DNA from: Candidatus Magasanikiibacteriota bacterium
GTDB lineage: Bacteria; Patescibacteriota; Patescibacteriia; Magasanikbacterales; GWA2-37-8
Reading direction: 5' to 3'
NCBI GenBank assembly: GCA_963840935.1
Contig: CAWJAS010000001.1
Location: 128,875 to 192,874, forward strand
Length of the DNA stretch: 64,000 bases
Below the pieces are notes generated by a model, which saw only the letters and a list, made by a program, of their open reading frames with translations, was not told the DNA's origin and searched no databases. The position numbers and the translations under genes are program-made. Below, one piece after another: positions 7,809-58,351 of this stretch; position 1 is the first letter of the stretch; the number at the start of each line of letters is the position of its first letter.

Positions 7809-7818
7809 AAAAAATTAA

Positions 7819-11240: not shown

Positions 11241-11269
11241 TTGACAGAATAGCTGTTATCCACTATATT
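11241..11269 (+). promoter_or_regulatory. Near-consensus sigma70-type promoter: TTGACA, 17 bp spacer, TATATT
   Basis: ttgacagaatagctgttatccactatatt. Followed by RBS AAAGGAGG and ATG at 11368. Confidence 0.6.
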
Positions 11270-11367
11270 AAAATGTCAATAGTTGAGAAATCATCTTTAA
11301 ACAAAAAGAGTGATTTCTCGTTATCGCGAGGATCCGCTCTTTAACAAAACCCAAAGGAGGCGTAAAA

Positions 11368-11559: not shown

Positions 11560-11576
11560 GAGCATATTCGGTTCAA

Positions 11577-11612
11577 ACGCAAGGCGTTGGCTATACAGTC
11601 GACGCCTTTTTT
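11577..11612 (+). terminator. Rho-independent terminator
   Basis: AAGGCGTtggctatacagtcgACGCCTTTTTTTAT. Confidence 0.7.
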
Positions 11613-11648
11613 TATGAGCAAAAAATAATTTGAAAGAAAATGTAGCCG

Positions 11649-11762
11649 AATGGGCGCGCTTATCCAATGAGTGTCGAAATTTGGGCCGAAGACAATTGAC
11701 ACTCATTTGAAATATAAATGTGTCAATTTTCTCTGAGCCAGATATGCCGTGTTGTGCGATGT
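11649..11762. repeat. attC-like cassette-boundary repeat (variant with different inner hairpin AATGAGTGTC...GACACTCATT)
   Basis: Starts aATGGGCGCGCTTATCCAAT. Ends GATATGCCGTGTTGTGCGATGT directly before the stop of the 11769-12146 gene. Confidence 0.65.
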
Positions 11763-11768
11763 TTAATT

Positions 11769-12146
11769 TCAATTCCGTAACGCTGATAAAGCACTGTCTA
11801 GTTTTTCAATCAGGTCTTCTTTGTCTGTATATTCTATAAAATTTTTACATACTACTTTCAGAGAACCAGATATTTTTGAACCTTTACGATAAATGCAGAT
11901 AATTGGACGCCCAAAAGAATCAGCCCAACCCAACTCAATCCCCAATCCAGTAGCAGGAAATGAAACTTCCGCAACCATTACATCGCACTTTTTTATAATG
12001 TCTTTCGTGACGAAATCACTTGCTTCTTGATAAATTTCATGTGGCAATATTATCTCATTTTCAGAGTTGAGCTTACTTTCTCTGATAGGTAAATATAATT
12101 CTTCCTTATAATTCAATTCTTTTGAGTGTCCAATGTATATTTTCAT
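11769..12146 (-). CDS. Nucleoside 2-deoxyribosyltransferase-like (flavodoxin-like fold) protein
   Basis: MKIYIGHSKELNY... N-terminus and size typical of the Nuc_deoxyri_tr2-like family. Weak. Loosely similar to the 15349-15762 product. Confidence 0.4.
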   Translation of the reverse strand: MKIYIGHSKELNYKEELYLPIRESKLNSENEIILPHEIYQEASDFVTKDIIKKCDVMVAEVSFPATGLGIELGWADSFGRPIICIYRKGSKISGSLKVVCKNFIEYTDKEDLIEKLDSALSALRN

Positions 12147-12164
12147 AAATAGTAATTAAAATTA

Positions 12165-12252
12165 AATTTCGTACAACGTATCGGCATATCTGATGTTGCG
12201 TAATAATATTGGCGAAACGTAGTGTAGCTAGATATACGCTGTTATCGGATAT
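12165..12252. repeat. attC-like cassette-boundary repeat
   Basis: aatttCGTACAACGtatcggcatatctgatgttgcg...GATATACGCTGTTATCGGATAT. Ends ~12 bp before the stop of the 12269-12760 gene. Confidence 0.55.
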
Positions 12253-12268
12253 AATCAAAATTTGATAC

Positions 12269-12760
12269 TCATTTGGGGCTAATTTTATTCAAAACCATTT
12301 TTAATGTAACAGGTCGATACCTGTTTTCTGGATATTTTTTTAATCTCTTTTTTACAAAGCCGCAAGACTCATATGCTTTAATAGCACGAATATTTTCAGG
12401 TCTGACTTCTAAATATGATTTTGAATACCCAAGCTTGCCAAATCCTAATGATAAGACCTTTTTGATTGCTTTCGTGCCAATTCCCTTATTCCAATACTCT
12501 TTTTCACCAATGACTATTGTAATTTCAAACGTATTTGAATCTTTATGCATTAATGCGAGATGGCCTATTGCTTTTTCATCATATTGAATAATGTAATGAT
12601 GATCTTTTTTGCTCTCAAACATTTTGAAAAAATATCCAGGGAGTTTTTCATCGAATTCATCAAAATTACCGCTGGTTAGAGCAATTAAATCATGATCTTT
12701 CCACCACTTGAGAAAGAGAGGAAGGTCTGTTTTTTTGATTTTTCTGAGCTTAATAGACAT
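12269..12760 (-). CDS. GNAT family N-acetyltransferase
   Basis: EKEYWNKGIGTKAIKKVLSLGF...AYESCGF. Confidence 0.8.
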   Translation of the reverse strand: MSIKLRKIKKTDLPLFLKWWKDHDLIALTSGNFDEFDEKLPGYFFKMFESKKDHHYIIQYDEKAIGHLALMHKDSNTFEITIVIGEKEYWNKGIGTKAIKKVLSLGFGKLGYSKSYLEVRPENIRAIKAYESCGFVKKRLKKYPENRYRPVTLKMVLNKISPK

Positions 12761-12812
12761 TTGTTAGTATAAAATTAGCCCCAATTACTTTAAATTAAAT
12801 TTTGATTATTTC

Positions 12813-12835
12813 CGATAAACGCTGTTAGGCGATGT
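12813..12835. repeat. Cassette-boundary core motif containing a perfect integron core-site heptamer GTTAGGC
   Basis: cgataaaCGCTGTTAGGCGATGT, 12 bp before the stop of the 12847-13341 gene. Confidence 0.55.
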
Positions 12836-12846
12836 AATAAAAAATA

Positions 12847-13341
12847 TTAGAAATCTGTTTCGCTTGGATCTATTGGTGCTGAAACAATCTTTGCCCTTTC
12901 TTGTTCAGTGATAAAGCTGCCTTCTTTGGGGACAATAGTCGCAAAGGGAGCGATGTGAACATCATCTGTTCCATTATCCAATCTCCAAAAACCGTACACT
13001 ACCCTGTGGCCAGGGTCTGTCACAGCCGCGTGTGCAATTTCATGTTCCATTAATTTATCAATGATATTTTTTTTACCACCAGCATCGATGAGGAATTTCC
13101 TCATCTCTTCAGCGGTATCAAATTCGTAGCAATCATCCTCATTCAGAATCGTTTCATATTTTTTTCGCAGTTCCTCACTTCTACCAGCTATTTCTTTTTT
13201 ATCTTTTATTCCAGCTTGGATAATTTCGCGCGTAATCGAAGTACGTTCACGAAGCCATCTTTTATAGTCATCAAGTTTTGTTTTTGGTTTTTTCATTTGT
13301 CTTGTTTCAGCATCCGTTTGTTCGATATGTGAGTGCTCCAT
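12847..13341 (-). CDS. Hypothetical protein with HExxH motif (MEHEIAHAAV), putative zinc metallopeptidase-like
   Basis: HEIAH motif. No other family assignment. Confidence 0.45.
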   Translation of the reverse strand: MEHSHIEQTDAETRQMKKPKTKLDDYKRWLRERTSITREIIQAGIKDKKEIAGRSEELRKKYETILNEDDCYEFDTAEEMRKFLIDAGGKKNIIDKLMEHEIAHAAVTDPGHRVVYGFWRLDNGTDDVHIAPFATIVPKEGSFITEQERAKIVSAPIDPSETDF

Positions 13342-13639
13342 ATAATTATTGAGGTTATTTTTTATTATGTCGCCGAATGTGTCCGAGTGTGCGAAGTTGG
13401 CTTTTCGGATTTATTGATTACTATTTTAGCTGGTTTTCGCTTAAATTACCACCAAACAAAGAAAGGCGAATTTGGGAAAAAGTTGAGCCGAGCAATTTTC
13501 CTTTTATCCCTTGTTATATGACCCGAACGGAATGAAATGGAGTGAGAGCGCATCGTGGCGCGACTGGAAGGAGCGAATTTTGCCAAACAAATAATTACCT
13601 TATTATTAGAGCTCTTTTGAAATTTTTCGGTGGGTGGGT

Positions 13640-13668
13640 TTGACATTTTTAACTGGATGTGATTTAAT
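13640..13668 (+). promoter_or_regulatory. Sigma70-type promoter: TTGACA, 17 bp spacer, TTTAAT
   Basis: ttgacatttttaactggatgtgatttaat. RBS caggagaaagcc before ATG at 13717. Confidence 0.5.
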
Positions 13669-13716
13669 TTACTATTCCGGCTCTGGTAGTTAGCCGGATA
13701 AACACAGGAGAAAGCC

Positions 13717-14094
13717 ATGCTTTACGCAATTGTTCTAGGGGCAGCGTCAGTGTCGGTAATTGTTGTTCTTTCATTTTTCTGCAACAAAATAGTGGAACGG
13801 CTAGAGTTAGGCCTGTCTTTATTCTACCATCCCTCGTGGATGATGCTGCGTCCATTAAATACACCTAGAAAAGTAATGATTTTTTTCTTTCGGTGGTTGC
13901 CAACGGCGCTATATTTAGTCGCGATAGTATTGTATGGTATCTTCAACCCATCAGAGGGGCTTGGAGACAAATTAATCCTTATCGGCGTTTTTTTTGCGTC
14001 GCAGGTGTTGGTTTCGTGTATTCTGTTGAGGGCTCATACGCACATTCTGGTCAAGAAGTACAGTAAATTAATTTCAAGTAGGTGCAAGCAGTAA
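13717..14094 (+). CDS. Hypothetical 4-TM membrane protein in a second self-contained reverse-oriented unit
   Basis: Hydrophobic segments. Own promoter and terminator. Confidence 0.5.
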   Translation: MLYAIVLGAASVSVIVVLSFFCNKIVERLELGLSLFYHPSWMMLRPLNTPRKVMIFFFRWLPTALYLVAIVLYGIFNPSEGLGDKLILIGVFFASQVLVSCILLRAHTHILVKKYSKLISSRCKQ

Positions 14095-14111
14095 AAGAGC
14101 CAAGGTTCCAT

Positions 14112-14145
14112 GCCCGCATAGATTAACATCTGCGGGCTTTTTTTA
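14112..14145 (+). terminator. Rho-independent terminator
   Basis: GCCCGCatagattaacatctGCGGGCTTTTTTT. Confidence 0.75.
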
Positions 14146-14414
14146 AAAAATTTTAAAAAAGAGCTTAATTCAAATTGTCAAAATTATTTGTTTGGCAAAA
14201 TTGCGAATAACAGTCAGGAATATCCGATGTTTTTGCGACCAACGGAAGCAAAAATATGGGTGAGATAATTTTTTATTCCTTATTATAATTTATATTGAAA
14301 AATTATTGAACCAGATATTCCTTGTTATCTGATGTAAATTTTTATCTTCGTCTTTGATGAACTTAATCTTGTTTTCGCACTAAAAATTTTTGTTTTGCCG
14401 AATGGCAAAACAGA

Positions 14415-15191
14415 TTATTTGGGGGTATTTATTATTTTTTTTAATTGTTCAATGTGTAATTCTTTTATTTCTTCAAATTCTTGTGAGGTATTTTTACCAT
14501 CCTTCATGATTGAAAATGTTTCAAGTAATATCGTACCGTCATATCCAATTGAATTCAGCTTGGAAATAATTCCATCGACTTTGGCTTGATTATCATAGAA
14601 TAAATGATCAAAATCTCCAATATTATCATGAAGATGAATATGTCCAATTTTGCCGCTAAAAATATCAATAAACTTATTCAACTCAGAGATTCTGTTGGCG
14701 TGTCCAATATCAAGGGTGATATTTGCATTAGGAATTTTTTCCAATAATTTCAAAATATTGTCGGCGGAATTATATGGCGCGCTTGAAACATTTTCAATCA
14801 ATAACTGCATGTTATTTTTTTGCAAAACAATATTTATTTCATTAAAGATTTCAGCATTTTCCTCTGTGTTCAAATTTTGATGCGGGTGAATCGTAATTTT
14901 TTTTGCACCCAAATCTCTCAATATCTCGATATTTTTTACGATTTCATCAAATTTAACAATATCCCAATGAATATGTCCTAAAACTTCAAAGTTTGTAGTC
15001 GCATTTTTTAAGTCGAAAAAAATATCATCGATGGTTTTTAGCACTTCTGGCTGAATAGTGATTTCCGTAAAATCAAAATATTGTTTTGCAAATTCAATTT
15101 CTGTGAGTAGGTCTCCTCTAAAACCCGACATATATCCAAATTTCATATTTTCGTTATTAAAAAAATAAAAAATATCTCTAAATAATTCCAC
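14415..15191 (-). CDS. Sugar phosphate isomerase/epimerase, xylose isomerase-like TIM barrel (AP endonuclease 2 fold)
   Basis: ITIHPHQN, DIGHANRISE, GHIHLHDN, metal-ligand pattern of the family. Confidence 0.75.
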   Translation of the reverse strand: MELFRDIFYFFNNENMKFGYMSGFRGDLLTEIEFAKQYFDFTEITIQPEVLKTIDDIFFDLKNATTNFEVLGHIHWDIVKFDEIVKNIEILRDLGAKKITIHPHQNLNTEENAEIFNEINIVLQKNNMQLLIENVSSAPYNSADNILKLLEKIPNANITLDIGHANRISELNKFIDIFSGKIGHIHLHDNIGDFDHLFYDNQAKVDGIISKLNSIGYDGTILLETFSIMKDGKNTSQEFEEIKELHIEQLKKIINTPK

Positions 15192-15283
15192 CTTTGACGG
15201 AAAACTTATAAAAAAACAAATTTTCGTCCTCGTTCAACGCACCAGAGCCTGAAATTATTACAAAGATAAAAATTTATTTCACA

Positions 15284-15348
15284 TAATGGGTCGCGGTTAT
15301 CCCATCGTCCCGCCCGGGCACGAACCTCATATTCGGTGTTGTACGATG
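15284..15348. repeat. attC-like cassette-boundary repeat, deletion variant lacking the right inner arm
   Basis: cataATGGGTCGCGGTTATCCCATCGTCCCGCCCGGGCACGAACCTCATATTCGG|TGTTGTACGATGT. Ends at the stop of the 15349-15762 gene. Confidence 0.7.
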
Positions 15349-15762
15349 TTAAATAATTTTTTTCAAATCACCATTAATAATAATCGGCTTAACTGCCTCA
15401 ATTTCAGTTTTACAATAAGGCATTTCGGGAATTGGGTTTAGCATGAAAACCTTTTGATTTAACACGTAGGCAAAACCGATTTCCATTAAAGTATTGCCGC
15501 CTACATAATTTTGGACGCCATTTTTATCAAGATTCAAAACAAGCACGGCATCTGCTCCTTGCATCATACGCCAAAATTCACGGATGGCGTCCATATTGTA
15601 TTTTTGGTGAAGTTTGATTTCTTCAATTTCGGAATCGGTTTTGCCCACCATTGCCTTATGCAAATCCGTGACAAATGCGTCATGCCCCAATTCCCGAAGT
15701 TTTTCACGATACTCAAGCATTTTATCGGTAAATTGCATTGAGCCGATTATTCCTATTTTCAT
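15349..15762 (-). CDS. Nucleoside 2-deoxyribosyltransferase-like protein
   Basis: MKIGIIGSMQFTDKMLEYREKLRELGHDAF...LVLNLD. Flavodoxin-like pattern. Confidence 0.45.
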   Translation of the reverse strand: MKIGIIGSMQFTDKMLEYREKLRELGHDAFVTDLHKAMVGKTDSEIEEIKLHQKYNMDAIREFWRMMQGADAVLVLNLDKNGVQNYVGGNTLMEIGFAYVLNQKVFMLNPIPEMPYCKTEIEAVKPIIINGDLKKII

Positions 15763-15789
15763 AAAAGATTTGAAAAAAATTATTTAATT

Positions 15790-15955
15790 TCGTACAATGG
15801 GTCGCGGTTATCCCATCGTCCCGCCCGGGCACGAACCTCATGTTCGGGCGGGATGTGGGATAACCGCTGTTATGCGATGTCGCGCGAGCAACTCGCAGAA
15901 CAGCGGGCACCGCGACCCATTATGCAAAATCGCTCACGCGATTTTGCATAATGTT
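15790..15955. repeat. Full-length attC-like palindrome plus additional nested hairpins; gene-less cassette-like segment
   Basis: cgtacaATGGGTCGCGGTTATCCCATCGTCCCGCCCGGGCACGAACCTCATGTTCGGGCGGGATGTGGGATAACCGCTGTTATGCGATGT. Then GCGCGAGcaaCTCGC, an inverted copy CCGCGACCCATT, and a perfect hairpin ATGCAAAATCGCtcacGCGATTTTGCAT. Confidence 0.7.
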
Positions 15956-16315
15956 TTTGGACATGCGAAGTTAAAAAACCCCGCCACCTTGACTTAATTG
16001 TATCAAAAAGAGCGGGGTTTTTCAATTTGGGAGGGGGCTTTCGAGGAAAGCCCGAACCGCATGTCCAGTGTTATGTGATTTATACTTTTCCTTTTATCCG
16101 TTAGGGTCGCTTTTCTATTTTAGGGCAAATTTGGTTTTGTCTTTCTTTGAGCTGAGAGGTTGGAGCGGATGCCCAAAAGTAAAGACGCATTATTGGAAGT
16201 TAGTAAGAAAAACGTCCGAAATTGAAGAAGGGGTCGCAACATCTGTTGCGACCCCTTTGGGGTTTTGCTGGCCTCCCGAGTTTCCTCAGCTTGCCAGACG
16301 GCGTAGCCGATCTCG

Positions 16316-16753
16316 TCACTCCACGACGGTCGTTTGACCGCGGCCAAACTTGCCATGGTTCCAGCCCGCACCGTTGATGTCAGTCACGGAGTGAACGTGT
16401 ATGGAGAGCAATTGGTCGAAGGCTTGGTCTGTATCGGGGTTCCCCGTGCGGTACTCGATCCACATGGGCTGGCCGACCGGCACATCATGAAAGGTCTCTG
16501 GAATATTGCCGTAACACCCTTGTCCGAAGGAATACTGAGCGACAGTGCCATCCGGCTTCTCCATGAGAAAGGTGTAACGCGACGGTTCGTGCATCAGGAC
16601 GCGAGAAACACCATCCATGCGCTTGGTCTCGGTCCAATCTATTGCACCAAGGGTCCGGTAGACGAAGGCCATGAGACCTAAGGACACAACCAGGAGAATG
16701 GAGACGGACAGGATGATCAAAGGAACATGAAACTTTTCCCTAATACGCTTCAT
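16316..16753 (-). CDS. Hypothetical N-terminally membrane-anchored protein; visibly GC-rich relative to flanks
   Basis: N-terminal TM segment. Codons are G/C-ending. Two consecutive hairpins downstream at ~16228-16262. Confidence 0.5.
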   Translation of the reverse strand: MKRIREKFHVPLIILSVSILLVVSLGLMAFVYRTLGAIDWTETKRMDGVSRVLMHEPSRYTFLMEKPDGTVAQYSFGQGCYGNIPETFHDVPVGQPMWIEYRTGNPDTDQAFDQLLSIHVHSVTDINGAGWNHGKFGRGQTTVVE

Positions 16754-17690: not shown

Positions 17691-17877
17691 TTTCGCACAA
17701 CTACCTTTATCATGACTAGTGGTAAAAACCGCTAAAATATGATAAAATTTTTGAGAAATTGGGGTTATAGGCGACGAAGGTGAGAGAAAAGCAAATTGAT
17801 TTGCTTTTCCGAGCCAAGGAGCTTATATACTGTGTATATAGCCCCTGGGGGTATAACGGATTAATATTATCAAGAAT

Positions 17878-18311
17878 TATGAAGGAGGGCAACACTTTTG
17901 ATAATTTGGCTAGGGAATTGCGTATTCGCAATTACAGCAAAAAAACCGCTAATTCATATATTCGGTATAATCAGGAGTTTTTGCGGTTTTGCGAAAAAGA
18001 CCCGCGTGAAGCAACGGCCGAGGATATAAAGAATTATTTGGATTATTTAGCTCAAGAATGGTCGTGGAAGCAGATTAACCGAATCAACTATACAAAAAAT
18101 CGTGGTTTCAACAGCCAAAAAAGCGGGGATTGCCAAAAATGTGACACCGCATACCTTGCGCCATTCGTTTGCCACGCATTTGCTAGAAAATGGCACGGAT
18201 ATACGGTATATTCAAGAATTGTTGGGGCATGCCAAGCTTCAGACCACCCAAATCTACACTCATGTGGCAAATAATAATTTAAAAAATATTGTGAGCCCGC
18301 TCGATGTATGA
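17878..18311 (+). pseudogene. intI-like: Integron-integrase-like tyrosine recombinase remnant: N-terminal SAM-like domain fused out of frame to the C-terminal catalytic tail; ~180 codons of the central domain are missing
   Basis: N-terminal part [61 protein letters not shown] parallels IntI1 [30 protein letters not shown]...EVEAFLSWLANE. After a frame change near 18050, [61 protein letters not shown]...VSPLDV matches the IntI/Xer C-terminus, including the HxxR and catalytic Tyr regions and the SPLD ending. Confidence 0.7.
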
Positions 18312-38576: not shown

Positions 38577-39662
38577 CTACTCGCCGTTCGCGGCGATGGC
38601 GGCTTCGACCTCCTCGGCCGAAACCACCGACTCCTGGCGACCGACGAGGCGGCGCGTGCGCTTGCCGCTATTCACGTGGTCGAGGAGCAGGGTGTAGAGG
38701 ATCTTGTGCGCCGTACCGCCCGCGCTGGCCAGGTTGCGTACCTGCGGGTCGTTGATCGGGAATTGGGCGATCTTGCGCGCCAGATCCCTTTCGATGTAGA
38801 GGCGCTTGTCCCGCCAGAAGGTGGTGTGGCGCGAGAGCAGGAGCGCCAGGCACATCAGGAAGGTGAGGCGCAGGTGCGTCGCGCCCTCTTTGAAGGTGAC
38901 GACCCTGATGCCCCAGGCCTTGTCGACCAGGTCGAAGAAGGTCCTGATGTTCTCGCGCAGGATGTTGCGCCCGACGCGGTTGTGGATCACTTCGATGCCA
39001 CGACCGAGTTCCCGCCAGCCGTTGCTGAGACCGGGACCGACATGCGAGTGCAGGGCGCCGATGACCTTGGCGAAGGACACGGCGCTGATCAGCTGCTCGC
39101 GCGTCTGGCGCTGGCACCAGGATACGCGGTTGACGAGCACGAAGTCCGGGTCGAAGAGCGTCAGGTTGTAGATCGTCTCGATGGCTGGGATGTCCGCCCG
39201 CATGTTGCGCAGGAGGATGTTCGAGTTGACCTTGGTCCGGTCGGCGTTGAGGATGCGGAAGCGCTCGCGCTCCCACTCCTCGTTGGAGTTGAAGTGCACC
39301 GTGGCTCCGAGCCGGGGTTTGGCGTCCTCGTAGCGGCGCATCATCTCGCGGGCCGCGGTTACCCGTTGGAGCCCGTCGATGATGTAGACGTCGTTCGGCA
39401 GGACGAAGACGCCCGGCTCGCGCTCGCGGAAGTTCCCTCCCCGGGCCCCGAGATCGATGTCGGGAATGGGGTCGCCCTTGACCATCGCGTCGATAATCTC
39501 GTTGATGGTCTGAATGGGGAGAACCTCGCGCTGGTACTCGGCCTGCTTGAACAGACCGAAGGAGTCCGGATCGATCACCCCGCGTAGGATGATCGTGCCT
39601 CCGGACACCTCGTCCAGTGCTCCGTGGTACAGCTTCACACAGTCCCTGTCCTTGTTGCCCAT
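38577..39662 (-). CDS. ParB/sulfiredoxin-fold DGQHR/DndB-like (DUF262-like) domain protein, GC-rich foreign gene
   Basis: VYIIDGLQRVTAARE core resembling the DGQHR/DGQQR motif of DndB/DUF262 ParB-like nuclease domains. ~360 aa as in DndB. Start taken at MGNKDRD with RBS aaaggagcccaacATG. The plus-strand ORF 38532-39587 is the antisense shadow. Confidence 0.5.
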   Translation of the reverse strand: MGNKDRDCVKLYHGALDEVSGGTIILRGVIDPDSFGLFKQAEYQREVLPIQTINEIIDAMVKGDPIPDIDLGARGGNFREREPGVFVLPNDVYIIDGLQRVTAAREMMRRYEDAKPRLGATVHFNSNEEWERERFRILNADRTKVNSNILLRNMRADIPAIETIYNLTLFDPDFVLVNRVSWCQRQTREQLISAVSFAKVIGALHSHVGPGLSNGWRELGRGIEVIHNRVGRNILRENIRTFFDLVDKAWGIRVVTFKEGATHLRLTFLMCLALLLSRHTTFWRDKRLYIERDLARKIAQFPINDPQVRNLASAGGTAHKILYTLLLDHVNSGKRTRRLVGRQESVVSAEEVEAAIAANGE

Positions 39663-46270: not shown

Positions 46271-47497
46271 TTATTTATTTATGTATTCCGCGTATCCGTC
46301 TTCCAAAATCGCTTTGCGTGCCTCGCGCATAAGGTTCAGCATAAAGTGAATGTTGTGGATTGTTGCCAGGCGTTGACCGGTTAATTCTTCCGCGTTAAAT
46401 AAATGATGAATATAGCTTCGGGAATAATTTTTGCACGTTGGACAAGAACAATTTTTTTCAATCGGGCCCGCGTCTTTGGCAAATTTGGCGTTGGTGATAT
46501 TAATTCTTCCTTCTTTGCCAGTAACATAAAGCATGCCATGGCGGGCGAGTCGAGTTGGCGCCACGCAGTCAAACATATCCGCGCCCATTCCCACGACTTT
46601 TAATAAATCTTTTGGCGAAAGCCCCACTCCCATTGTGTAGCGGGGATTTTCTTTTGGCAAAATCGGCGCGAGCCAGCCCATTATTTCTGCGGTCGCTTCC
46701 ATATTATAGCCGATTGATTCACCACCGATGGCAATGCCGTCAAAATCAAGAGAGGCAATAAAGCGGGCTGATTCCTCGCGCAGGTCTTTGTGGCCCGCGC
46801 CTTGGATGATACCAAAAAGAAATTGGTTGTGCGGTTTGTCATCCCGAGCGTTAGCGAAGGATCTGTCACTAGCGCCAAAAGATTCTTCACTACTCCGCTT
46901 AACAGCGGGTCCGCTCAGAATGACATTTTGAAGTTTTTTGTGTTCCAAAAGACATCTCTCGGCCCAGCGGTGAGTGCGTTCCATTGCCTCTTTTGCATAT
47001 TCGCGCGGTGCCGTATCCGGAGTGCATTCGTCAAAAGCCATTATGATATCCGCGCCGAGTTTGTGTTGAATTTGGATGGCTGATTCCGGAGTAAAACGAT
47101 GAGTTGAACCATCCAAATGAGATTTGAAAGTGGCGCCGTCCTCATCAATTTGAATAAGTCCGCCTTGTCCGCGCGCTTCTTTTTGCAATCCGAAACTAAA
47201 AACCTGAAATCCGCCAGAATCGGTTAGAATCGGTTTGTCCCAATTCATAAATTTATGCAGTCCGCCTATTTCGGCGATTAAATCTTCGCCCGGGCGCAAA
47301 TGCAGGTGATAGGTATTGCCAAGTATTATTTGCGCTCCCAAATTATTCAAATCGGTTTGGTCCAAAGTTTTTACGGTTGCCTGAGTTCCGACCGGCATAA
47401 AACAAGGCGTTTCAATGTCGCCGTGGTCGGTGTGCATAATGCCGGCTCGCGCGCCGGTTTTTTTGTCTTCGTGGATTAGCTCAAAAAATGTTGGCAT
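46271..47497 (-). CDS. tgt: Queuine tRNA-ribosyltransferase
   Basis: ETPCFMPVGTQATVK, LTDSGGFQVFSF, zinc site CSCPTCKNYSRSYIHHL. Confidence 0.9.
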   Translation of the reverse strand: MPTFFELIHEDKKTGARAGIMHTDHGDIETPCFMPVGTQATVKTLDQTDLNNLGAQIILGNTYHLHLRPGEDLIAEIGGLHKFMNWDKPILTDSGGFQVFSFGLQKEARGQGGLIQIDEDGATFKSHLDGSTHRFTPESAIQIQHKLGADIIMAFDECTPDTAPREYAKEAMERTHRWAERCLLEHKKLQNVILSGPAVKRSSEESFGASDRSFANARDDKPHNQFLFGIIQGAGHKDLREESARFIASLDFDGIAIGGESIGYNMEATAEIMGWLAPILPKENPRYTMGVGLSPKDLLKVVGMGADMFDCVAPTRLARHGMLYVTGKEGRINITNAKFAKDAGPIEKNCSCPTCKNYSRSYIHHLFNAEELTGQRLATIHNIHFMLNLMREARKAILEDGYAEYINK

Positions 47498-47588: not shown

Positions 47589-48218
47589 ATGAGTGAAAAA
47601 TTTAACCCGATTATTATTGAAGGCGAAAAGGAAAAAGAATATCCTTTTGTTATTAATGAGCAAGGAGAACTCAGGATTCCCGGGTTCGGCGATATTAATG
47701 AGCCATACAACGCCGACGCGCATGAAGTTGATGATACGGGAGTGAGCAGAGCAGAACGTTTTCTTGATGTCATGAAAGATGAAAATGGAAAATACGTTAA
47801 AGCGCGATATAAAAATGAAAAAGAATTTAAAGGAAGAATGATTGAGCAAGCCAATAAAGGCGCCCAGGTGACAAAAGAAGTCCACAAAAAAATTGTTAGG
47901 CGATTAACTGGGATGCGGGAAGAAGCACCAAAAGTAAAAGATGCCAGGTCATTTGAAAATGTTTTATCCGATTATTTTGATTCAGACCCATGGTTTAGGG
48001 GTATGATTCTTGGTTGGGATGTGAAGACCATGAAATCAAAAACAACTGAGCCATCATATAAATTGTCGGTAATTTTTGAGGACAACTTGTATAAACAAGG
48101 CAAAAGAAAAGTACATTTTACCGGCACGTATGCGGAAATAGTGGATAAATTAGAGAAAAAAATTAATGAATATGAAGCGCCATTAAGATTGGTTCAGGAA
48201 GAAGAGGAAGCGGTATGA
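47589..48218 (+). CDS. Hypothetical protein
   Basis: Stop overlaps the helicase start by 4 nt. Confidence 0.5.
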   Translation: MSEKFNPIIIEGEKEKEYPFVINEQGELRIPGFGDINEPYNADAHEVDDTGVSRAERFLDVMKDENGKYVKARYKNEKEFKGRMIEQANKGAQVTKEVHKKIVRRLTGMREEAPKVKDARSFENVLSDYFDSDPWFRGMILGWDVKTMKSKTTEPSYKLSVIFEDNLYKQGKRKVHFTGTYAEIVDKLEKKINEYEAPLRLVQEEEEAV

Positions 48219-50296
48219 TTGATTTTAAAAATGAACTTAATGATGAACAGTTGGCCGTTGTCCTTAAAGGCGACGGCCCTTGTTTAGTTCTTGCTGGCGC
48301 CGGTTCGGGCAAGACGCGCACGATTACTTATCGAGTGGCGTTTTTGCTTGAGCGGGGGGTTAGCCCGGAAAATATTTTGCTCGTCACTTTTACCAATAAA
48401 GCGGCCGGGGAGATGATTAATCGGGTTCAAGAAATAACCGGTATGAAACAGAAATTACCCTGGGCCGGGACTTTTCACAGTATTGCCAATAAAATTTTGC
48501 GCGCGCATGCTTTGGCAATCGGCTATAAACCGAATTTTACAATTCTCGACACTGACGACAGTGAATCGCTTGTCAAAATTTGCCTAAAAAAAATCGCTCC
48601 TGAGACAAATGGCGATAAATTTCCTTCGGCCAGAGTGATAAAAAATATAATCAGTTTTGCCAGAAACGCCGAAACAACAATTGAAGATGTTTTGGACATG
48701 AAATATCCGAGCTGGTTTTGCTATTCCGATGAAATAAAACAAATCGCCGAAGAATATGAAAAGAAAAAGCGAGAGGCCAATGCCATGGATTTTGATGATT
48801 TGCTGACAAATTTTTTGGTTTTATTAAACCAGCCGGAAATCGCGCAAAAATATTCCCGTCAATTCAAATACATTTTAGTCGATGAGTACCAAGACACAAA
48901 TCGCATTCAATCAAACATTGTAAAAAAATTAGCCGAGATTCATAAAAATCTTTTGGTGGTGGGCGATGACGCGCAAAGTATTTATTCTTTCCGCGGGGCG
49001 GACATTGAAAATATTTTGAATTTTGAGCGTTATTTTCCATCGGCGAAAGTTTTTAAACTGGAAACCAATTATCGTTCCAGTCAAGAAATTTTGTCTTTGG
49101 CCAACAATGTTATTGAGAACAATGTAAAACAATACCAAAAAAATTTGCGCACGGTTTTTGAGTCCGGCGTAAAACCGGAACTCCGCCCACAAATGGATCA
49201 ATCGGCCGAAGCGGAGTTTGTCAGGCAAAAAATCAGTGAGGCCTTGGAATCGGGAATTCCGCCAAAAGAAATTGCCGTGCTTTTTCGCGCCTCGCACCAT
49301 TCACAGCAATTGGAAATGACGCTTGCCAAAGCCGGAATCGCCTATGACTATCGGGGTGGTTTACGGTTTTTTGAGCGAGCGCACATCAAAGATGTGCTTG
49401 CCTATTTGCGTTTGATGACAAATTTGGCGGATACTACTGCTTGGATGCGCGTGCTTTTGAAAGAAGAGGGAATTGGCACAGTTGGGGCGGAGAGAATTAT
49501 CGAGGCGGTTAGACAACATGTCATCCTGACCCGCCAGTTGGCGGGGAAGGATCTTTCAATTTTAGAACAAAAAGATTCTTCGGTCGCTATGCTTCCTCAG
49601 AATGACATTAAAAATATTTTAGGCGAGCGGGCGAAAGTCGGTTGGAATAATTTTGTCCGTATTTGGGAAGAGATGCTCAATGTGGGAATTGGCAATCCTT
49701 CGGAGTTGGTCAAGGCGATTTTAAAAACAGGTTACAGCGATTATTTGGAGGCCGAATATATTGACAGCAGAGAGCGGACGGCTGATGTGGGACAACTCGC
49801 CGTGTTCGCCGAAAAGTTTGATGATCTGAATGAATTTTTATCTGAAGCTGGACTGAATGAAGATTATGGCCAAAAAAATCAAAAAAATAAATCCAGTGAA
49901 GAAAAAATTATTCTTTCAACCATTCATCAGGCCAAAGGTTTGGAATGGAATCATGTTTTTATAATTAATCTTTCAAGCGCCGGTTTTCCCAATGGCCGGG
50001 CGCTCGGCGAGCGGGGCGGACTTGAAGAAGAACGCCGTTTGTTTTATGTGGCACTTACCCGAGCCAAACGAAATTTATTTTTGACGTATCCTTTGTCGGG
50101 CGGGGGATTTGGCGACATGACAAGCGGGCCGTCCATGTTTTTGGAGGAAATCGATCCGGACTTACTCAAAGATTATTCACTCTTGCCCGAACGGGGAAGT
50201 TTGGTTTTGGATGATGATGAAATAACTTATGTTTCTGAAGACGAGCCAATAAAAATAACACCCGGATTTTTGCTCCGGGATGTTGATGATTTGTAA
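48215..50296 (+). CDS. UvrD/PcrA/Rep-family ATP-dependent DNA helicase
   Basis: LVLAGAGSGKTRTITYRVAFLL, VTFTNKAAGEM, VDEYQDTN, helicase motifs to the C-terminus. Confidence 0.9.
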   Translation: MIDFKNELNDEQLAVVLKGDGPCLVLAGAGSGKTRTITYRVAFLLERGVSPENILLVTFTNKAAGEMINRVQEITGMKQKLPWAGTFHSIANKILRAHALAIGYKPNFTILDTDDSESLVKICLKKIAPETNGDKFPSARVIKNIISFARNAETTIEDVLDMKYPSWFCYSDEIKQIAEEYEKKKREANAMDFDDLLTNFLVLLNQPEIAQKYSRQFKYILVDEYQDTNRIQSNIVKKLAEIHKNLLVVGDDAQSIYSFRGADIENILNFERYFPSAKVFKLETNYRSSQEILSLANNVIENNVKQYQKNLRTVFESGVKPELRPQMDQSAEAEFVRQKISEALESGIPPKEIAVLFRASHHSQQLEMTLAKAGIAYDYRGGLRFFERAHIKDVLAYLRLMTNLADTTAWMRVLLKEEGIGTVGAERIIEAVRQHVILTRQLAGKDLSILEQKDSSVAMLPQNDIKNILGERAKVGWNNFVRIWEEMLNVGIGNPSELVKAILKTGYSDYLEAEYIDSRERTADVGQLAVFAEKFDDLNEFLSEAGLNEDYGQKNQKNKSSEEKIILSTIHQAKGLEWNHVFIINLSSAGFPNGRALGERGGLEEERRLFYVALTRAKRNLFLTYPLSGGGFGDMTSGPSMFLEEIDPDLLKDYSLLPERGSLVLDDDEITYVSEDEPIKITPGFLLRDVDDL

Positions 50297-50297
50297 T
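50250..50297. repeat. Left copy of a 47-bp direct repeat (the last 47 bp of the uvrD-like ORF)
   Basis: ATAAAAATAACACCCGGATTTTTGCTCCGGGATGTTGATGATTTGTAA. Second copy at 51320-51366 differs at 2 positions. Confidence 0.85.
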
Positions 50298-50593
50298 TAC
50301 CCTGTCATTCCGATCGGATCTTTGTTGGCAGATTTCGGCTTCGTCTCGCTATGCGGGATTTCGCTGAGAAGGGCAGGTCAAAAGCTTAAAAAACGGGCTT
50401 TTTATTTTTATGATTTTGGCTAATTTTAGATAATAAATACTCTTGACAAAACCGCCAAAATGTACTATAGAATATTGGTGATTGCGATGGAAAGCTCTTT
50501 TTAGGAAGTCAAGAGAAAAAACAAAAACGGTAAGCCTTGGGTCTCGGCATAATGTCGGAACAAGAGGCGCGCCAAAGCGAAGGAGATAGAATC

Positions 50594-51235
50594 ATGAGTC
50601 GGAAAGACAAGAAGGAATGGACGCTGGAGACACTGCTCTCGGTGGTCGGGTTCTTGTTCGAACTGTTGCGCGTGGTCGTCAACGCTCTGCGTGCCCGCAA
50701 TGGTACGGTGGACGACCTGCGTCGCCTGATCAGGGAGCCGAAGCTCGTCGATGATGTCTTTGACCTTATCGTCGGCGCGAAGAAACTCATCGGCTTCCAG
50801 GTCACCTACGATCAAGCCAAGGGATTGACGGAACTCATCAGGCGCGCCCTCGGTCCAAAAAACGTTAATAACTTCAATCACGACATGATGCCGTCGCGGT
50901 TCCCGCTCAAGGGGAGGAATGTCCGGACGGTTAACGTCCGGGTCGAACCTTTCCTTTCCGGTGAGACAGGCGAAGAGGCCGCGAAGCGCCTGACCGCCAC
51001 CGGCCACACCCTGGCCAACACCGGCGACTTGGTCGGCTTCCTCCATGAACATCCTAAGGAGGTGGAAAATTGGAGCTGGGTCATTTCTTTGAGCGGTGAC
51101 TCCCGTTGGAAGGACCCGAACGGCTATATCCTCGTGCCGTGCGCCCGCGTGAATGGTGCGTATCGCTTCTTTCGCCTTGACGACTTCGATGAAATATTCG
51201 GCTTCGACCGTGGCGTCCTCGTCCTTTGTGAGTAG
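50594..51235 (+). CDS. GC-rich hypothetical protein A (paralog family with B and C)
   Basis: RBS gaaggagatagaatcATG. G/C-rich third positions. C-terminal block RVNGAYRFFRLDDFDEIFGFDRGVLV. Confidence 0.55.
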   Translation: MSRKDKKEWTLETLLSVVGFLFELLRVVVNALRARNGTVDDLRRLIREPKLVDDVFDLIVGAKKLIGFQVTYDQAKGLTELIRRALGPKNVNNFNHDMMPSRFPLKGRNVRTVNVRVEPFLSGETGEEAAKRLTATGHTLANTGDLVGFLHEHPKEVENWSWVISLSGDSRWKDPNGYILVPCARVNGAYRFFRLDDFDEIFGFDRGVLVLCE

Positions 51236-51287
51236 ATAGTCTTGGTCCTGCCAAAGGCGGGCAGGTCTAGTTATTTAATGTTCATTC

Positions 51288-51320
51288 GGCCCGACATAAA
51301 ATGTGTCGGGCTTTTTTTAT
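51288..51320 (+). terminator. Rho-independent terminator
   Basis: GGCCCGACAtaaaaTGTGTCGGGCTTTTTTT. Confidence 0.75.
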
Positions 51321-51366
51321 AAAAATAACACCCGGATTTTTACTCCGGGATGTTGATGATTTGTGA
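51320..51366. repeat. Right copy of the 47-bp direct repeat
   Basis: ATAAAAATAACACCCGGATTTTTACTCCGGGATGTTGATGATTTGTGA. Confidence 0.85.
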
Positions 51367-51368
51367 AG

Positions 51369-51749
51369 CTATCCAATTATTCTATAGACTTGGCTCAAAT
51401 GCTGGTCAAAATTGTTGGGCAAGTTTGCTTGTGTTTTTGCGTCCCAAACTTTTAATAAAAATTGGTCCATATTCATCGGTTCTTTTTCTGCACCAAACCT
51501 GTTTATCAGTTCGTCGATTTTTCTTGGTTTTACGTCGGTCAGAATCAAAAAGTATTCGGTTGATTTTTTGCCGTCTATTTTAAAAAATTGGACATGATTT
51601 CCAAACATCTCCGCTTCTTCGGGGGTGGTGTTTTCCGCAATCAGGTCGTGCCAAGATTTGTAAATATTTTCCACGGACGGCAAAATTTCACCGGTTCTTT
51701 CTTGACCTTCGGAATCAATATATGTAAATGATGGGCTTTCTGAAGTCAT
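51369..51749 (-). CDS. Hypothetical protein (AT-rich, host-like)
   Basis: Convergent with the helicase. Its stop abuts the right repeat copy, whose reverse complement forms a hairpin plus T-run. Confidence 0.5.
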   Translation of the reverse strand: MTSESPSFTYIDSEGQERTGEILPSVENIYKSWHDLIAENTTPEEAEMFGNHVQFFKIDGKKSTEYFLILTDVKPRKIDELINRFGAEKEPMNMDQFLLKVWDAKTQANLPNNFDQHLSQVYRIIG

Positions 51750-51950
51750 ATGCGATTATTGTAAAATAATCGCTGAATTTTGTAAATATTAATTCCGTCG
51801 TTCACGAGCGACTGGATTGACAAAACAACAAAAAAATGTAATATTTTGTTTGACTGTTCATTTTAAAATCCAAAAAATCCCGCCAATTCGGCGGGTTCCT
51901 GGCCCGGGATTAGGGCATGGAGGCGGGCGATAACAAGCCCGAGGAGAGCA

Positions 51951-52562
51951 ATGTCGAAACCGTTGGAGGAAGTGAAGAAACTGACCATTGGCCAGCTGGC
52001 CGCGCTCGTGCACGCCATCGGCGGGCTTGTCGCGGTCAAGGCAATTCTTCGTGACAAGGGTCTGGCCAAACGGGTGGCCGAGTTCATCTGTAATGACGAG
52101 AAGGGAATCGTTAAAGTTGTCGGCATGTTCACGGCATTCGTGGATTACGCCAACCCGTCGTACCAAGAGCTCAAGTCGGCCTTCGATTGGGTCGATGACT
52201 GGTATGATCGGGCGATGTTCAAGACAATCGACATCTGTAAATCGGTTAGTCGTGAGCCCTGTGTAGTGGGGTTCGTCTACGTCCATATGGACCGCACCGC
52301 TTCCAGTAATGAGGTTTACGCCACGATGGAGACACGTGGATTGCGTCCGGCACTATACGAGGAACTCCTGGCGTTCGCCAAGGCCTACCCTGACGAGCAG
52401 AGGAAGTTTCATATTATCGCTCTTGGATCTTTCTGTGTGGGTGTGAGCGGTGGTCGCTACGTGGCGTACCTCAGCGATGTTGGCTATGGTCGTCGCCTGC
52501 GCCTGGATTTTTTTGAGCACGACTGGTTTGACAATTGCCGTTTTCTCGCTGTCAGCAAGTAA
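51951..52562 (+). CDS. GC-rich hypothetical protein B (paralog family)
   Basis: RBS ggaggagagcaATG. C-terminal block SDVGYGRRLRLDFFEHDWFDNCRFLAV. Confidence 0.55.
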   Translation: MSKPLEEVKKLTIGQLAALVHAIGGLVAVKAILRDKGLAKRVAEFICNDEKGIVKVVGMFTAFVDYANPSYQELKSAFDWVDDWYDRAMFKTIDICKSVSREPCVVGFVYVHMDRTASSNEVYATMETRGLRPALYEELLAFAKAYPDEQRKFHIIALGSFCVGVSGGRYVAYLSDVGYGRRLRLDFFEHDWFDNCRFLAVSK

Positions 52563-52600
52563 CGGTCATTGGCAACTTGGCTACTTGGTTCTTTCGTTTA

Positions 52601-52650
52601 CTTTTGGGCCCTTGGTACTTTGGTACCTTGGGCCCTTTTTTATTTTAAGT
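52601..52650 (+). terminator. Terminator hairpin GGGCCCTTGGTACtttGGTACCTTGGGCCC plus T-run; repeated at 53940-53990
   Basis: Same sequence follows gene C (gggtccttggtactttggtatcttgggccctttttt). Confidence 0.7.
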
Positions 52651-52729
52651 TATCTCTAAATATTAATTGCAAATAAAAAAGGACCCACTTTACCCCGGGT
52701 CCAATAGGGTCTGTGCCTTTTTGGAACAC

Positions 52730-52830
52730 TGTTGGTCGCGAGATGCGATGCTGGTTTGTGTTCGCATGCGACACATTTTTGGTCGCCACGACATTTGGTC
52801 GCAGTGCGACAACACGTTGTTCCTTAGGCG
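52730..52830. repeat. Cluster of 3-4 direct iteron-like repeats TTGGTCGC-N-CGACA
   Basis: ttggtcgcgagatgcgatg / tgttcgcatgcgacaca / ttggtcgccacgaca / ttggtcgcagtgcgacaaca. Confidence 0.55.
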
Positions 52831-53034
52831 GTCCTTCGCACGCCGGTTTGGTTTCGCGCTAGGTCTGCCGGCTCATCATGACGTGCCTGCCTCCTTCTCT
52901 GTATTGGTTAGAGGTTTTTGGAATCTGAATAAAATGATAACATATTTTTTTGCAGATTGACAAGAGTTTCAAAATGTAATATGTTATTTTGTTAAATAGC
53001 GTTCTTTTTTATATCTCGGTTTTCTTTGGGCCAA

Positions 53035-53100
53035 TATCATTGTCATTCCCGCGAAGGCGGGAATCTGAGAAACGTGGATCCCCGATCAGGTCGGGGATGA
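53035..53100. repeat. Inverted pair of TGTCAT(T/C)CCCG boxes, each with its own hairpin; related box TGTCATTCCGATCGG at 50302-50316
   Basis: TGTCATTCCCGCGAAGGCGGGAATC ... GATCCCCGATCAGGTCGGGGATGACA. Confidence 0.55.
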
Positions 53101-53195
53101 CAGTTGTTGATCAAAAGAAGACCGGGATACAAAACCGGCATCCTTTCGGCCAGTTTGGTCGGAAGTATTTCCCACTTTGGGAAAGGAGAACGCAA

Positions 53196-53906
53196 ATGAA
53201 CAGAAAAGTGTCGTTCAATGCCATTGCCCGTTTTATGGTGGAGCTTTCGGACGAGGAACAGCGGGCGATAGTGGAGAATCCCGGGCTCGTTCGGTTTTTT
53301 TTGGCTGATTTGGCCCGCGAGAAGGAGGATAACACCTTCTTCACCCACATCGCCGACAAGGACGCCCCGGCGCATCTCATAGACACGGTCGCCAAGTGGC
53401 GCAAGCTCGCGAGCGACATGGGCTACACCGGTCCGGTGCTCTGGCTGGTCAAAGCCGGCTTCACCCTGAAGAAGCATGCCCCGCTCGCTGGTCCCTGCTA
53501 CGAACAGTTCAAGTACCTGCAGGACTGGATCTTTCAGAACTACGAACCTACGGTCGACTCTACGGTGTTCTTCGTCCCTCGCATCATCGCGACGGGGAAG
53601 GACGCCGAGGAGCAGAAGCAGGTTCTCTCCAAGCTTCGCGCGAAGTACAAACTGTCGGCAAACCACTGCGACTCGTTCGGTTCGGTCGCACTCATCAGCG
53701 GTCTCATACTCGCGCACTTCAAGCGTACGGGCGAGCGCGCCCCTCTCAACGACGAGTGGGTGCGCACCAACACCTTCGACTCGGTCGGCGACCGGCTCTA
53801 CCTCGGCGGCTTCAACGAGTATGGGCTCAGCTGCGGCCGCCACTGGAGTGTCATCAGCCGTGGCCGACTCGGGGCTTTCCCGCTGGGGATCGAGTCGCTC
53901 GTCTAG
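53196..53906 (+). CDS. GC-rich hypothetical protein C (paralog family)
   Basis: RBS gaaaggagaacgcaaATG. C-terminal block DSVGDRLYLGGFNEYGLSCGRHWSV. Minus-strand ORF 53043-54056 is its antisense shadow. Confidence 0.55.
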   Translation: MNRKVSFNAIARFMVELSDEEQRAIVENPGLVRFFLADLAREKEDNTFFTHIADKDAPAHLIDTVAKWRKLASDMGYTGPVLWLVKAGFTLKKHAPLAGPCYEQFKYLQDWIFQNYEPTVDSTVFFVPRIIATGKDAEEQKQVLSKLRAKYKLSANHCDSFGSVALISGLILAHFKRTGERAPLNDEWVRTNTFDSVGDRLYLGGFNEYGLSCGRHWSVISRGRLGAFPLGIESLV

Positions 53907-53939
53907 GCCGATTTGCTCTTTCATCATCTTTTGCCTGTC

Positions 53940-53990
53940 GGCAGGCAAGCTTGGGTCCTTGGTACTTTGGTATCTTGGGCCCTTTTTTAT
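53940..53990 (+). terminator. Second copy of the GGTACTTTGGTA-type terminator hairpin
   Basis: GGGTCCTTGGTACTTTGGTATCTTGGGCCCTTTTTTATT. Confidence 0.7.
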
Positions 53991-54134
53991 TCCCTTGACA
54001 AACTCCGCCTCATCATATATCCTATTCACGAACGTTAAAACTTTGCCTTGGCCCATCTAACCAAGGCAAAGAGTAAACCTTTAGCAAAAATCGTGGCTGA
54101 TTTTAACAAAGGTCAGCTTTTTTATTTAAAAATT

Positions 54135-58200: not shown

Positions 58201-58351
58201 AATTAGCCAAAAAGCATATTTTATTATTAAAAAATTAATTGTTAACAAGTTAAAGTTAAAAAAGCATTGACTAAACAACGCGGGAGGTTTAAGATTATTT
58301 GGTTCGATTTTATAGTTCATTTACAATCGGTTTCACAAAAAAGGAGGGAAA

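Follow-up and report, generated by a model that had tools for sequence, protein, structure and literature searches.

A candidate variable-protein cassette between a helicase gene and its convergent neighbour in a Magasanikbacteria genome, most likely a one-off recombination scar

The window analysed here is a stretch of 64 kb from a 770,905-bp contig of a low-GC genome of the candidate phylum Magasanikbacteria (candidate phyla radiation, CPR, or Patescibacteria). It has a GC content of 41.2%, and searches described below as made in the window cover these 64 kb. Between the gene of a UvrD/Rep-type helicase (48215-50296, plus strand, 693 amino acids; Pfam UvrD-helicase 9e-83, UvrD_C 7e-61) and a gene of 126 amino acids that converges on it (51369-51749, minus strand, function not assigned; hereafter the convergent gene), the window contains an inserted segment of 1,022 bp with 51.7% GC (50297-51318, plus strand). 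This segment possesses gene A as its only coding content and is bracketed by two copies of a 48-nt direct repeat. Most probably the 1-kb insertion is the scar of a single recombination event and not a mobile element of a new kind.

The inserted segment, its flanking repeat and the empty site

The closest helicase orthologues in the genome collection (loci L001 to L003, 64-68% amino acid identity) belong to metagenome-assembled genomes of Magasanikbacteria or Patescibacteria, and the helicase gene is about 83% identical at the DNA level to those of loci L023 and L024. Orthologues of the convergent gene abut the helicase in relatives, and the inserted segment is missing at the same site in L023, L024, L002 and L003. 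In L023 (JGI 3300005077, 79-kb contig; convergent protein 83% identical) the helicase ends in ...TTTGTGA, followed by AG and the stop codon of the convergent gene; the same empty site is present in L024, L026 and L029 (Logan SRR267867xx-868xx; convergent protein 94% identical). The L023/L024 arrangement, with stops 2 nt apart, is the exact product of deleting 50297-51366 from the window. The two stop codons of L002 (helicase 68% identical) abut, with a hairpin lying within the helicase 3' end, and L003 (helicase 64% identical) possesses a 32-nt spacer with its own bidirectional terminator, rpsL following soon after the convergent gene. L001 lacks the convergent gene.

The sequence-only reading had proposed that helicase and hypothetical gene once stood tail-to-tail and that a unit with gene A was inserted with duplication of its target, and had named comparison with related genomes as the check. 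That comparison bears out both proposals, as four lineages are empty and the 48-mer stands on both sides of an insert that the relatives lack. A single gain of the cassette in the window's lineage is far more parsimonious than four precise losses. The reverse history, a filled ancestral state from which the relatives lost the cassette by precise recombination between the repeat copies, is highly improbable. Recombination between direct repeats of 46-48 nt would indeed restore a perfect empty site, and the locus does recombine, a gene-conversion tract ending inside the second copy; however, L024, L023, L002 and L003 are all empty, which takes several independent precise losses against one gain, the L003 spacer differs and has its own terminator, and neither L002 nor L003 carries a scar.

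Copy 1 of the repeat, ATAAAAATAACACCCGGATTTTTGCTCCGGGATGTTGATGATTTGTAA, occupies 50249-50296 on the plus strand and comprises the last 15 helicase codons plus the stop TAA, so that the C-terminus of the protein reads IKITPGFLLRDVDDL. Copy 2 (51319-51366, plus strand) is now non-coding. Two bases, AG, separate it from the stop codon of the convergent gene, whose terminator is formed by the minus strand of this copy. The two copies agree over 46 nt with one mismatch, or over 48 nt with two mismatches including the stop (TAA versus TGA). The mismatch in the coding part is a G to A change at position 24, from TTG to TTA, which encodes Leu in both, and the longest exact stretch in common is 23 nt. 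The repeat at the helicase end had been accurately described from the sequence alone, with coordinates placed one base too far to the right. No third copy exists within the 64 kb, none of 100 dinucleotide shuffles of the window gave a match, and a 40-nt degenerate query returned 0 matches from the metagenome contig collection.

On the minus strand both copies read CCCGGAG(C/U)AAAAAUCCGGG and then UGUUAUUUUUAU, with a 6-bp GC stem and a 7-nt loop, and both scored terminator-like on that strand in the terminator scan. Fold and scan therefore agree with the earlier view that the reverse complement of the repeat is a hairpin plus T-run ending the convergent gene. The 48-nt segment has two functions: it is the helicase 3' end, and its opposite strand terminates the convergent gene. 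Outgroup comparison with the relatives gives an ancestral 48-mer that had a TGA stop and, in the hairpin loop, a G. Copy 1 departs from it only by the change of TGA to TAA, copy 2 only by the change of G to A in the hairpin loop.

That the arrangement is an assembly artefact or chimera, with a GC-rich fragment of another organism joined at a short repeat, is extremely improbable. The genome is metagenome-derived and the composition of the insert is unlike that of its flanks. Against this, an independent Logan contig of 2,521 bp (ERR15459710) contains the convergent gene between gene A and gene B (51951-52562, plus strand; a second GC-rich cassette of the same modular superfamily as gene A) in the same arrangement, with the same spacings of 201 and 133 nt, so that the right junction is not peculiar to this record. 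The maximum exact identity of 23 nt between the copies is too short to tangle an assembly. Furthermore, promoter and terminator of the insert are of host type, and the gene A family adjoins CPR genes in many CPR contigs.

Origin of the insertion

We infer that the insert arose once, by illegitimate recombination or a template switch, and that selection preserved the resulting duplication; we give this explanation about an even chance. Imported DNA would have paired with the helicase gene by homology at one end and been joined illegitimately at the other; alternatively, a template switch during replication would have made the join. In the case of homology-facilitated import, the donor would have had a helicase followed directly by TAATTACCC... 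The event would have chanced to duplicate the 48-nt overlap of helicase and convergent gene, with no dedicated integrase or transposase. Selection would account for its survival, copy 1 completing the helicase and copy 2 keeping the terminator of the convergent gene, and the limits of the duplication, namely the terminator U-tract on one side and the stop codon on the other, would be the result of that selection. The duplication would have been retained because an insertion without it would truncate the helicase or remove the terminator of its neighbour.

Homology-facilitated illegitimate recombination and template switching (fork stalling and template switching, FoSTeS; microhomology-mediated break-induced replication, MMBIR) have been described for naturally transformable bacteria. 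The present insertion resembles such events in its one-off foreign or ectopic DNA, its short duplication of recipient sequence and its lack of element-specific ends, and the locus has other scars. The terminator of gene B (52604-52644, plus strand) recurs as a 95% identical 41-nt copy at 53951-53991, where it ends gene C (53196-53906, plus strand), a third GC-rich cassette. Another genome (GCA_964511455.1, locus L021) possesses a near-perfect 195-nt duplicate (5891-6085 and 7463-7657) of the 3' end of a small membrane-protein gene. Its two copies flank a tRNA gene and a cassette with a target gene of a diversity-generating retroelement (DGR), and promoter copies at 6388-6458 and 7746-7816 are 94% identical. 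By its sequence, L021 is another locus in which a long duplicate of an upstream gene end stands on both sides of a target cassette. The 195-nt and promoter duplicates of L021, together with the terminator pair of genes B and C, point therefore to cassette arrays built by duplicative, non-site-specific recombination.

Several observations weigh against a recombination scar of this kind. No donor for 50297-50411 was found among the fetched loci. The break points are near-symmetric around the hairpin (13 nt, the 19-nt hairpin, 14-16 nt), a symmetry that would be expected from a dimeric enzyme measuring from a palindrome. The right junction is the exact end of the T7 tract of the gene A terminator (51288-51318, plus strand; a strong intrinsic terminator with an 11-bp stem), that is, the last base of the insert is the last T and the predicted 3' end of the transcript; under a DNA-only model this is a coincidence. 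Outside the 64-kb window there may be a recombinase acting in trans, or a DGR with gene A as its target. Finally, the DGR status of gene A rests on homology, its own template repeat not being found in the window.

Site-specific integration, suggested earlier as one of two possible origins, would involve a small circular cassette with a 46-48-bp version of the helicase 3' end as attP, the chromosomal helicase end as attB, and a tyrosine or serine recombinase acting in trans, leaving attL and attR. In favour of this, the empty-site sequence is found at either junction, and the repeat does not extend past the stop codon; att identity segments, too, often end with the target gene. Islands and prophages that tyrosine recombinases place in the 3' ends of tRNA or protein genes have the same kind of junction repeats, equal to the empty-site sequence, and likewise regenerate the gene end, with the repeat stopping at the stop. 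Here, in contrast to these, no integrase is seen, the cargo is a single gene, and there is no sign of the same att being reused by other cassettes. Neither the insert nor the open reading frames (ORFs) scanned within 14 kb on either side contain a recombinase or transposase (Pfam scans of selected ORFs at 36.9-46.2 kb, 47.6-54.6 kb and 57.7-63.4 kb), and tblastn of the window with an integrase query found nothing. The search for a cognate recombinase, which the sequence-only reading had recommended, thus yields in the window only a truncated tyrosine-recombinase gene at 17780-18274, 32 kb away. This remnant, which can be counted in favour of integration, consists of the N-terminal SAM-like domain only (Phage_int_SAM_4, PF13495, E 8e-13), the catalytic domain being missing. 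Other cassettes of the gene A family have no flanking repeat (L019, L031) or a different one (the 195-nt repeat of L021), which argues against a reused attachment site, and no relative of gene A was found on viral contigs. Among three features of an attL/attR-type integrative element, the locus possesses the junction repeats and lacks recombinase and site reuse. Site-specific integration is on this evidence unlikely.

The earlier statement that the duplication is too long for an ordinary transposase holds, the repeat being 46-48 bp long and the insert lacking terminal inverted repeats at the ends of 50297-51318. Transposons and insertion sequences differ from the present case by such inverted repeats, by a transposase, of which none occurs among the ORFs scanned, and by duplications of 2-15 bp. 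Integron cassettes end in an attC site and depend on an IntI integrase with attI; the insert has its own promoter, and no IntI-like gene is present among the scanned ORFs. A long target duplication could still be made by an enzyme acting in trans, with staggered cuts about 46-48 nt apart measured from the hairpin and subsequent gap repair. Consistent with this are the almost symmetric break points (13 nt and 14-16 nt), a duplicated unit that holds a palindrome and has the size of a repeat in arrays of clustered regularly interspaced short palindromic repeats (CRISPR), and the pair of 41-nt terminator copies bracketing the gene C cassette. Spacer acquisition by Cas1-Cas2 and casposons resemble the locus in that a palindrome-containing segment of some tens of bases is duplicated on both sides; however, no CRISPR array, Cas1 or terminal inverted repeats are seen, and the insert is 1 kb long and not a spacer. 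Casposon duplications are about 14-15 bp long. No Cas1-like or transposase gene exists among the selected ORFs scanned with Pfam, the terminator pair of genes B and C is not symmetric about its hairpin and can stem from common descent, and the L021 duplication is not hairpin-centred. An enzyme-made duplication is accordingly very unlikely.

An RNA-mediated origin would start from a read-through transcript ending at the gene A terminator, inserted by target-primed reverse transcription with a variable duplication of the type made by long interspersed nuclear elements. The end of the insert at the end of the T7 tract, a predicted RNA 3' end, fits such an origin, as does the tie of the gene A family to reverse transcriptases. 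Nevertheless, the inserted DNA comprises not only its own promoter but also 146 bp that precede the -35 box, so the RNA would have to start further upstream; a DGR reverse transcriptase would scramble adenines, whereas gene A is an intact ORF with a well-predicted fold; and no reverse transcriptase is present in the window. Synthesis of DGR cDNA is self-primed, not target-primed, which also counts against this origin, and we attach little probability to it.

A broader possibility, also distinctly doubtful, is that DGR-type lectin cassettes are themselves mobile in CPR bacteria and are inserted at or into terminator hairpins by an unrecognised mechanism, with duplications of about 40-50 bp or longer. 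Candidates would be a ruler-type integrase cutting symmetrically about the hairpin, or reverse transcription of a transcript that ends at its own terminator. The 48-bp repeat, the 41-nt terminator pair at gene C and the 195-nt repeat of L021 would then be three footprints of one process.

The sequence to the right of the insert has a further history. Identity to L024 is 96-99% in the convergent gene, whereas the helicase tail has a four-fold divergence of 0.37 (Fisher p 6e-10), which makes L024 a related species and not a conspecific strain; synonymous divergence between window and L024 drops from 0.37 to 0.05 on passing from the helicase tail to the convergent gene. The tract that is near-identical to L024 extends from 51354 to about 51700 and thus begins beyond position 34 of copy 2. 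To the left of that point copy 2 does not resemble L024, and the N-terminus of gene B is again equidistant. An origin of the two repeat copies from two lineages joined by recombination was considered and rejected on account of these limits of the tract. The tract is better explained, from the pattern of divergence, as a later short gene-conversion patch between lineages of otherwise about 83% identity, with the heterologous insert halting it on the left. The patch gives no information on how the insert arose. In 51354-51700 the convergent gene is 97-99% identical to that of L024 and differs from it by 3 synonymous and 8 non-synonymous codon changes, a curious non-synonymous excess.

Gene A and diversity-generating retroelements

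The elements that the earlier reading had listed between the repeat copies, i.e. a box, a promoter, a 5' untranslated region (UTR), GC-rich gene A and a terminator, are all present. Gene A (50594-51235, plus strand, ATG at 50594) encodes 213 amino acids, with an N-terminal helical module (residues about 1-65) and a domain of predicted C-type-lectin fold (68-213). It has no match in Pfam, NCBIfam or PADLOC. A large protein collection contains 27 relatives, and a profile search retrieves 758 cluster representatives, 206 of them at E <=1e-10; the protein scan of metagenome contigs gave one distant relative only. Exact look-ups in the contig index with gene A (three start choices), P0001 and the helicase returned no match. 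In the alignments, the N-terminal 65 residues (MSRKDKKEW...DLIV) are joined elsewhere to several unrelated C-terminal domains, and the C-terminal domain is found behind other N-termini in other proteins.

Three homologues are paired with template repeats (TR), from which their variable repeats (VR) differ almost exclusively at template adenines. In L021 the protein P0008 (49% identical to gene A) has its VR in the last 130 nt (8493-8622) and its TR at 9008-9137; of the 21 mismatches 19 fall on template adenines, and bAvd and an RVT_1 reverse transcriptase are encoded after the TR. L032 (P0004, 55% identical) possesses a VR at 1552-1684 and a TR at 2040-2172 (23/24 mismatches at template adenines). 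In L022 (P0013) the VR covers about the last 95 nt of the gene and the TR lies about 470 nt downstream (14/15). These adenine-specific mismatches identify the homologues of gene A in L021, L032 and L022 as DGR targets. For the homologues the VR/TR comparison thus shows a C-terminal stretch of 95-133 nt that is rewritten by a DGR from a template repeat, and the same would apply to gene A.

Gene A itself agrees with such targets in several respects. Its N-terminal module has 93% DNA identity to L022. The last 130 nt are collinear with the VR/TR pairs of L021 and L032, the VR-equivalent stretch spanning 51104-51233 (plus strand) and ending in the conserved GGCGTCCTCGTCC... Compared with these heterologous TRs, gene A differs at 58-62% of template-adenine positions and at 24-27% of other positions. 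Its GGCGTCCTCGTCCTTTGTGAG aligns with GGTGTCCTCGTCC(G/T)CTGC in VRs and TRs of L021 and L032, and its 3' end shares the invariant GGYGTCCTCGTCC motif with the TRs, as an end of the type of the initiation of mutagenic homing (IMH) site would. The predicted C-type lectin fold has its variable residues at the C-terminal end. A GC-rich hairpin at 51247-51265 (plus strand), 11 nt past the gene A stop, could by conjecture be a DGR target-recognition hairpin. No template repeat for gene A was found on either strand of the window (adenine-tolerant scan; best candidate with 32 non-A mismatches over 130 nt), nor a DGR reverse transcriptase or Avd (tblastn with those of L021); these scans reach at least 13 kb downstream and 50 kb upstream of gene A. 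None of the best 120 of more than 8,000 relatives of the L021 reverse transcriptase came from a contig of 770,905 bp. Gene A would hence be a remote or orphan gene of a DGR-type variable protein, and its product is probably a diversifiable ligand-binding protein. Adenine depletion, considered as a sign of retro-mutagenesis of the whole transcript, was rejected as too unspecific: compared with the helicase, gene A is low in adenine (0.20 against 0.30) but also in T (0.22 against 0.28).

By homology gene A belongs with the DGR variable proteins of C-type lectin fold, such as Bordetella phage Mtd, Treponema TvpA, Thermus TaqVP and DGR targets of CPR bacteria. It differs from them by having no TR, Avd or reverse transcriptase within the range given above, and its family differs by very small size (about 150-230 amino acids), by being markedly GC-rich in AT-rich genomes, and by a swappable N-terminal helical module together with a conserved promoter and 5' UTR. 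The family consists of small C-type-lectin-fold proteins for which no annotation exists; their DGR nature, like the hot spot described below, was missed in the sequence-only reading.

Gene A has 57.5% GC, and GC at third codon positions is 0.74 for gene A, 0.66 for gene B and 0.81 for gene C, against 0.43 for the helicase and 0.40 for the convergent gene. The target genes of L021 reach 57-67% GC beside a reverse transcriptase/Avd region of 40-44%, and in L023, a genome with 83% identity, the gene B orthologue in the corresponding position has 55-62% GC. GC-richness is, as far as base composition tells, a trait of the gene A family and not a mark of recent foreign origin. As a mark of foreign DNA it is not supported, given the orthologous GC-rich cassette resident in the 83%-identical relative and the GC-rich targets of L021 beside an AT-rich reverse transcriptase; composition therefore neither dates the insertion nor by itself points to a foreign donor. 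Two further ORFs of deviating composition occur on the minus strand of the window. One of 361 amino acids (38577-39662, 62-65% GC) is an isolated GC-rich island in AT-rich surroundings, with a consensus promoter of its own and a hairpin at either flank, and matches nothing in Pfam, NCBIfam or PADLOC. The other (16316-16753, 145 amino acids, GC locally 51%) has a predicted N-terminal membrane helix and no family match.

The left part of the insert starts with a TGTCATTCCGATCGG box at 50303-50317, within a left-end-only copy (50303-50380, plus strand) of an element of the TGTCATTCC... type, which is similar to miniature inverted-repeat transposable elements (MITEs) and lacks a matching right end. 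None of the fetched loci contains a homologue of this copy. Complete MITE-like elements of the TGTCATTCC type are found at 46838-46925, in frame in the tRNA-guanine transglycosylase gene tgt, and at 53043-53104, in the 5' UTR of gene C. The former is 88 bp long with the inverted repeats TGTCATCCCGAGCG...CGCTCAGAATGACA at its limits, and in-frame inserts like it are also found in the L021 reverse transcriptase and in tgt of L001. A degenerate terminator-like stretch, AAAAAACGGGCTTTTTATTTTTAT, can be read from the sequence at 50388-50411 (plus strand); it resembles the spacer terminator of L003 minus its hairpin, which may be due to chance.

The promoter region that follows is AT-rich and of host type (50412-50477, plus strand) and contains TTGGCTAATTTTAG at 50416-50429, a -35 box TTGACA at 50443 and a -10 box TATAGA at 50466-50471. 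The promoter TTGACA-N17-TATAGA (50443-50471) lacks the final T of the -10 box and hence was not listed by the consensus scan. From about 50415, promoter and 5' UTR have 84% DNA identity to the DGR target of L022. A TTGGCTAA/TTAGCCAA motif lies directly upstream of the -35 box in several strong promoters, those of cassettes and of ordinary host genes alike: in the window at 50416-50429 and 58203-58212, and in L001 (9063-9083), L002 (9198-9213, a perfect palindrome), L021 (7746-7770) and L022 (216-231). It may be a common operator or an UP-type element. The 5' UTR of about 116 nt (50478-50593, plus strand; transcription start deduced from the promoter) contains the conserved motif GCCTTGGGTCTCGGCA at 50534-50549 and a ribosome-binding site AAGGAG at 50580-50585. 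The motif GCCTTRGGTCTCGGCA, with a small hairpin after it, occurs in 5' UTRs of genes with the gene A-type N-terminal module (50534-50549 here, about 330-345 in L022, about 5716-5731 in L031), and motif and hairpin may form a regulatory RNA element.

The helicase-rpsL interval and the variable-protein genes of CPR bacteria

Locally, the genes are arranged in the order tgt (46271-47497, minus strand), a gene of 209 amino acids, helicase, gene A, convergent gene, gene B, gene C, rpsL, rpsG and fusA. The interval between helicase and rpsL differs in content from locus to locus. L003 contains the convergent gene alone, L002 one other small GC-rich gene, and L001 a toxin-antitoxin-like gene pair, as read from its ORFs, together with a GC-rich ORF of another kind, a relative of the C-terminal extension of P0010. 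The gene B orthologue of L023 differs from gene B mainly in the last 45 or so residues, which would be as expected for a DGR variable region. L024 possesses a fusion of 419 amino acids (134-1393) that combines the N-terminus of gene B, a gene-C-like middle domain and a lectin-type end. Gene B is 49% identical (E 3e-51) to P0025, whose N-terminus is of gene A type. By BLASTP gene A has no direct similarity to genes B and C, the link between A and B running only via P0025-type intermediates. The comparison of these loci indicates that the helicase-rpsL interval is a hot spot in which such cassettes are gained, lost and recombined.

A conserved GC-rich element (about 250-330 nt) is placed differently among the loci: L023 and L024 have it between convergent gene and B-type gene, the window downstream of gene B. 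In the window the unit spans 52675-52935 (minus strand) with a promoter-like site at 52963-52934 and a terminator at 52702-52681; its counterparts are at 7690-7960 in L023 and 1500-1890 in L024. As a candidate template repeat it was discarded, there being no adenine-tolerant match to it in the whole window; a small RNA is a possible identity. Rfam at permissive thresholds gave only sub-threshold hairpin or terminator matches in 50200-54100 and 10300-16100. The latter region contains a hairpin-forming repeat of about 85 nt (GGGTCGCGGTTATCCCATCGTCCCGCCCGGGCACGAAC...) in three copies with 84% identity (10470-10552, 15252-15336 and 15763-15882) and a separate two-copy repeat of about 140 nt (11020-11162 and 13378-13501), none of which reaches the Rfam threshold.

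The finding by itself reveals no new mobile element or enzyme, and no new mechanism is required so far. What is new is a family of unannotated DGR-type targets, seen here as a recent insertion whose duplication is unusually long and under functional constraint. Overlapping gene ends, with a terminator inside the coding sequence of the neighbour, constrain which insertions survive, and at this site only one that duplicated the 48 bases would have been tolerable. CPR bacteria, cell-attached organisms whose genomes are very small, appear to maintain a stock of small GC-rich genes for lectin-fold variable proteins, cassettes with interchangeable N-terminal and promoter modules that are shuffled beside the ribosomal-protein operon. 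If a DGR elsewhere in the genome serves gene A, the gene would be a remote target in a lineage whose DGRs were thought to act mainly on one adjacent gene.

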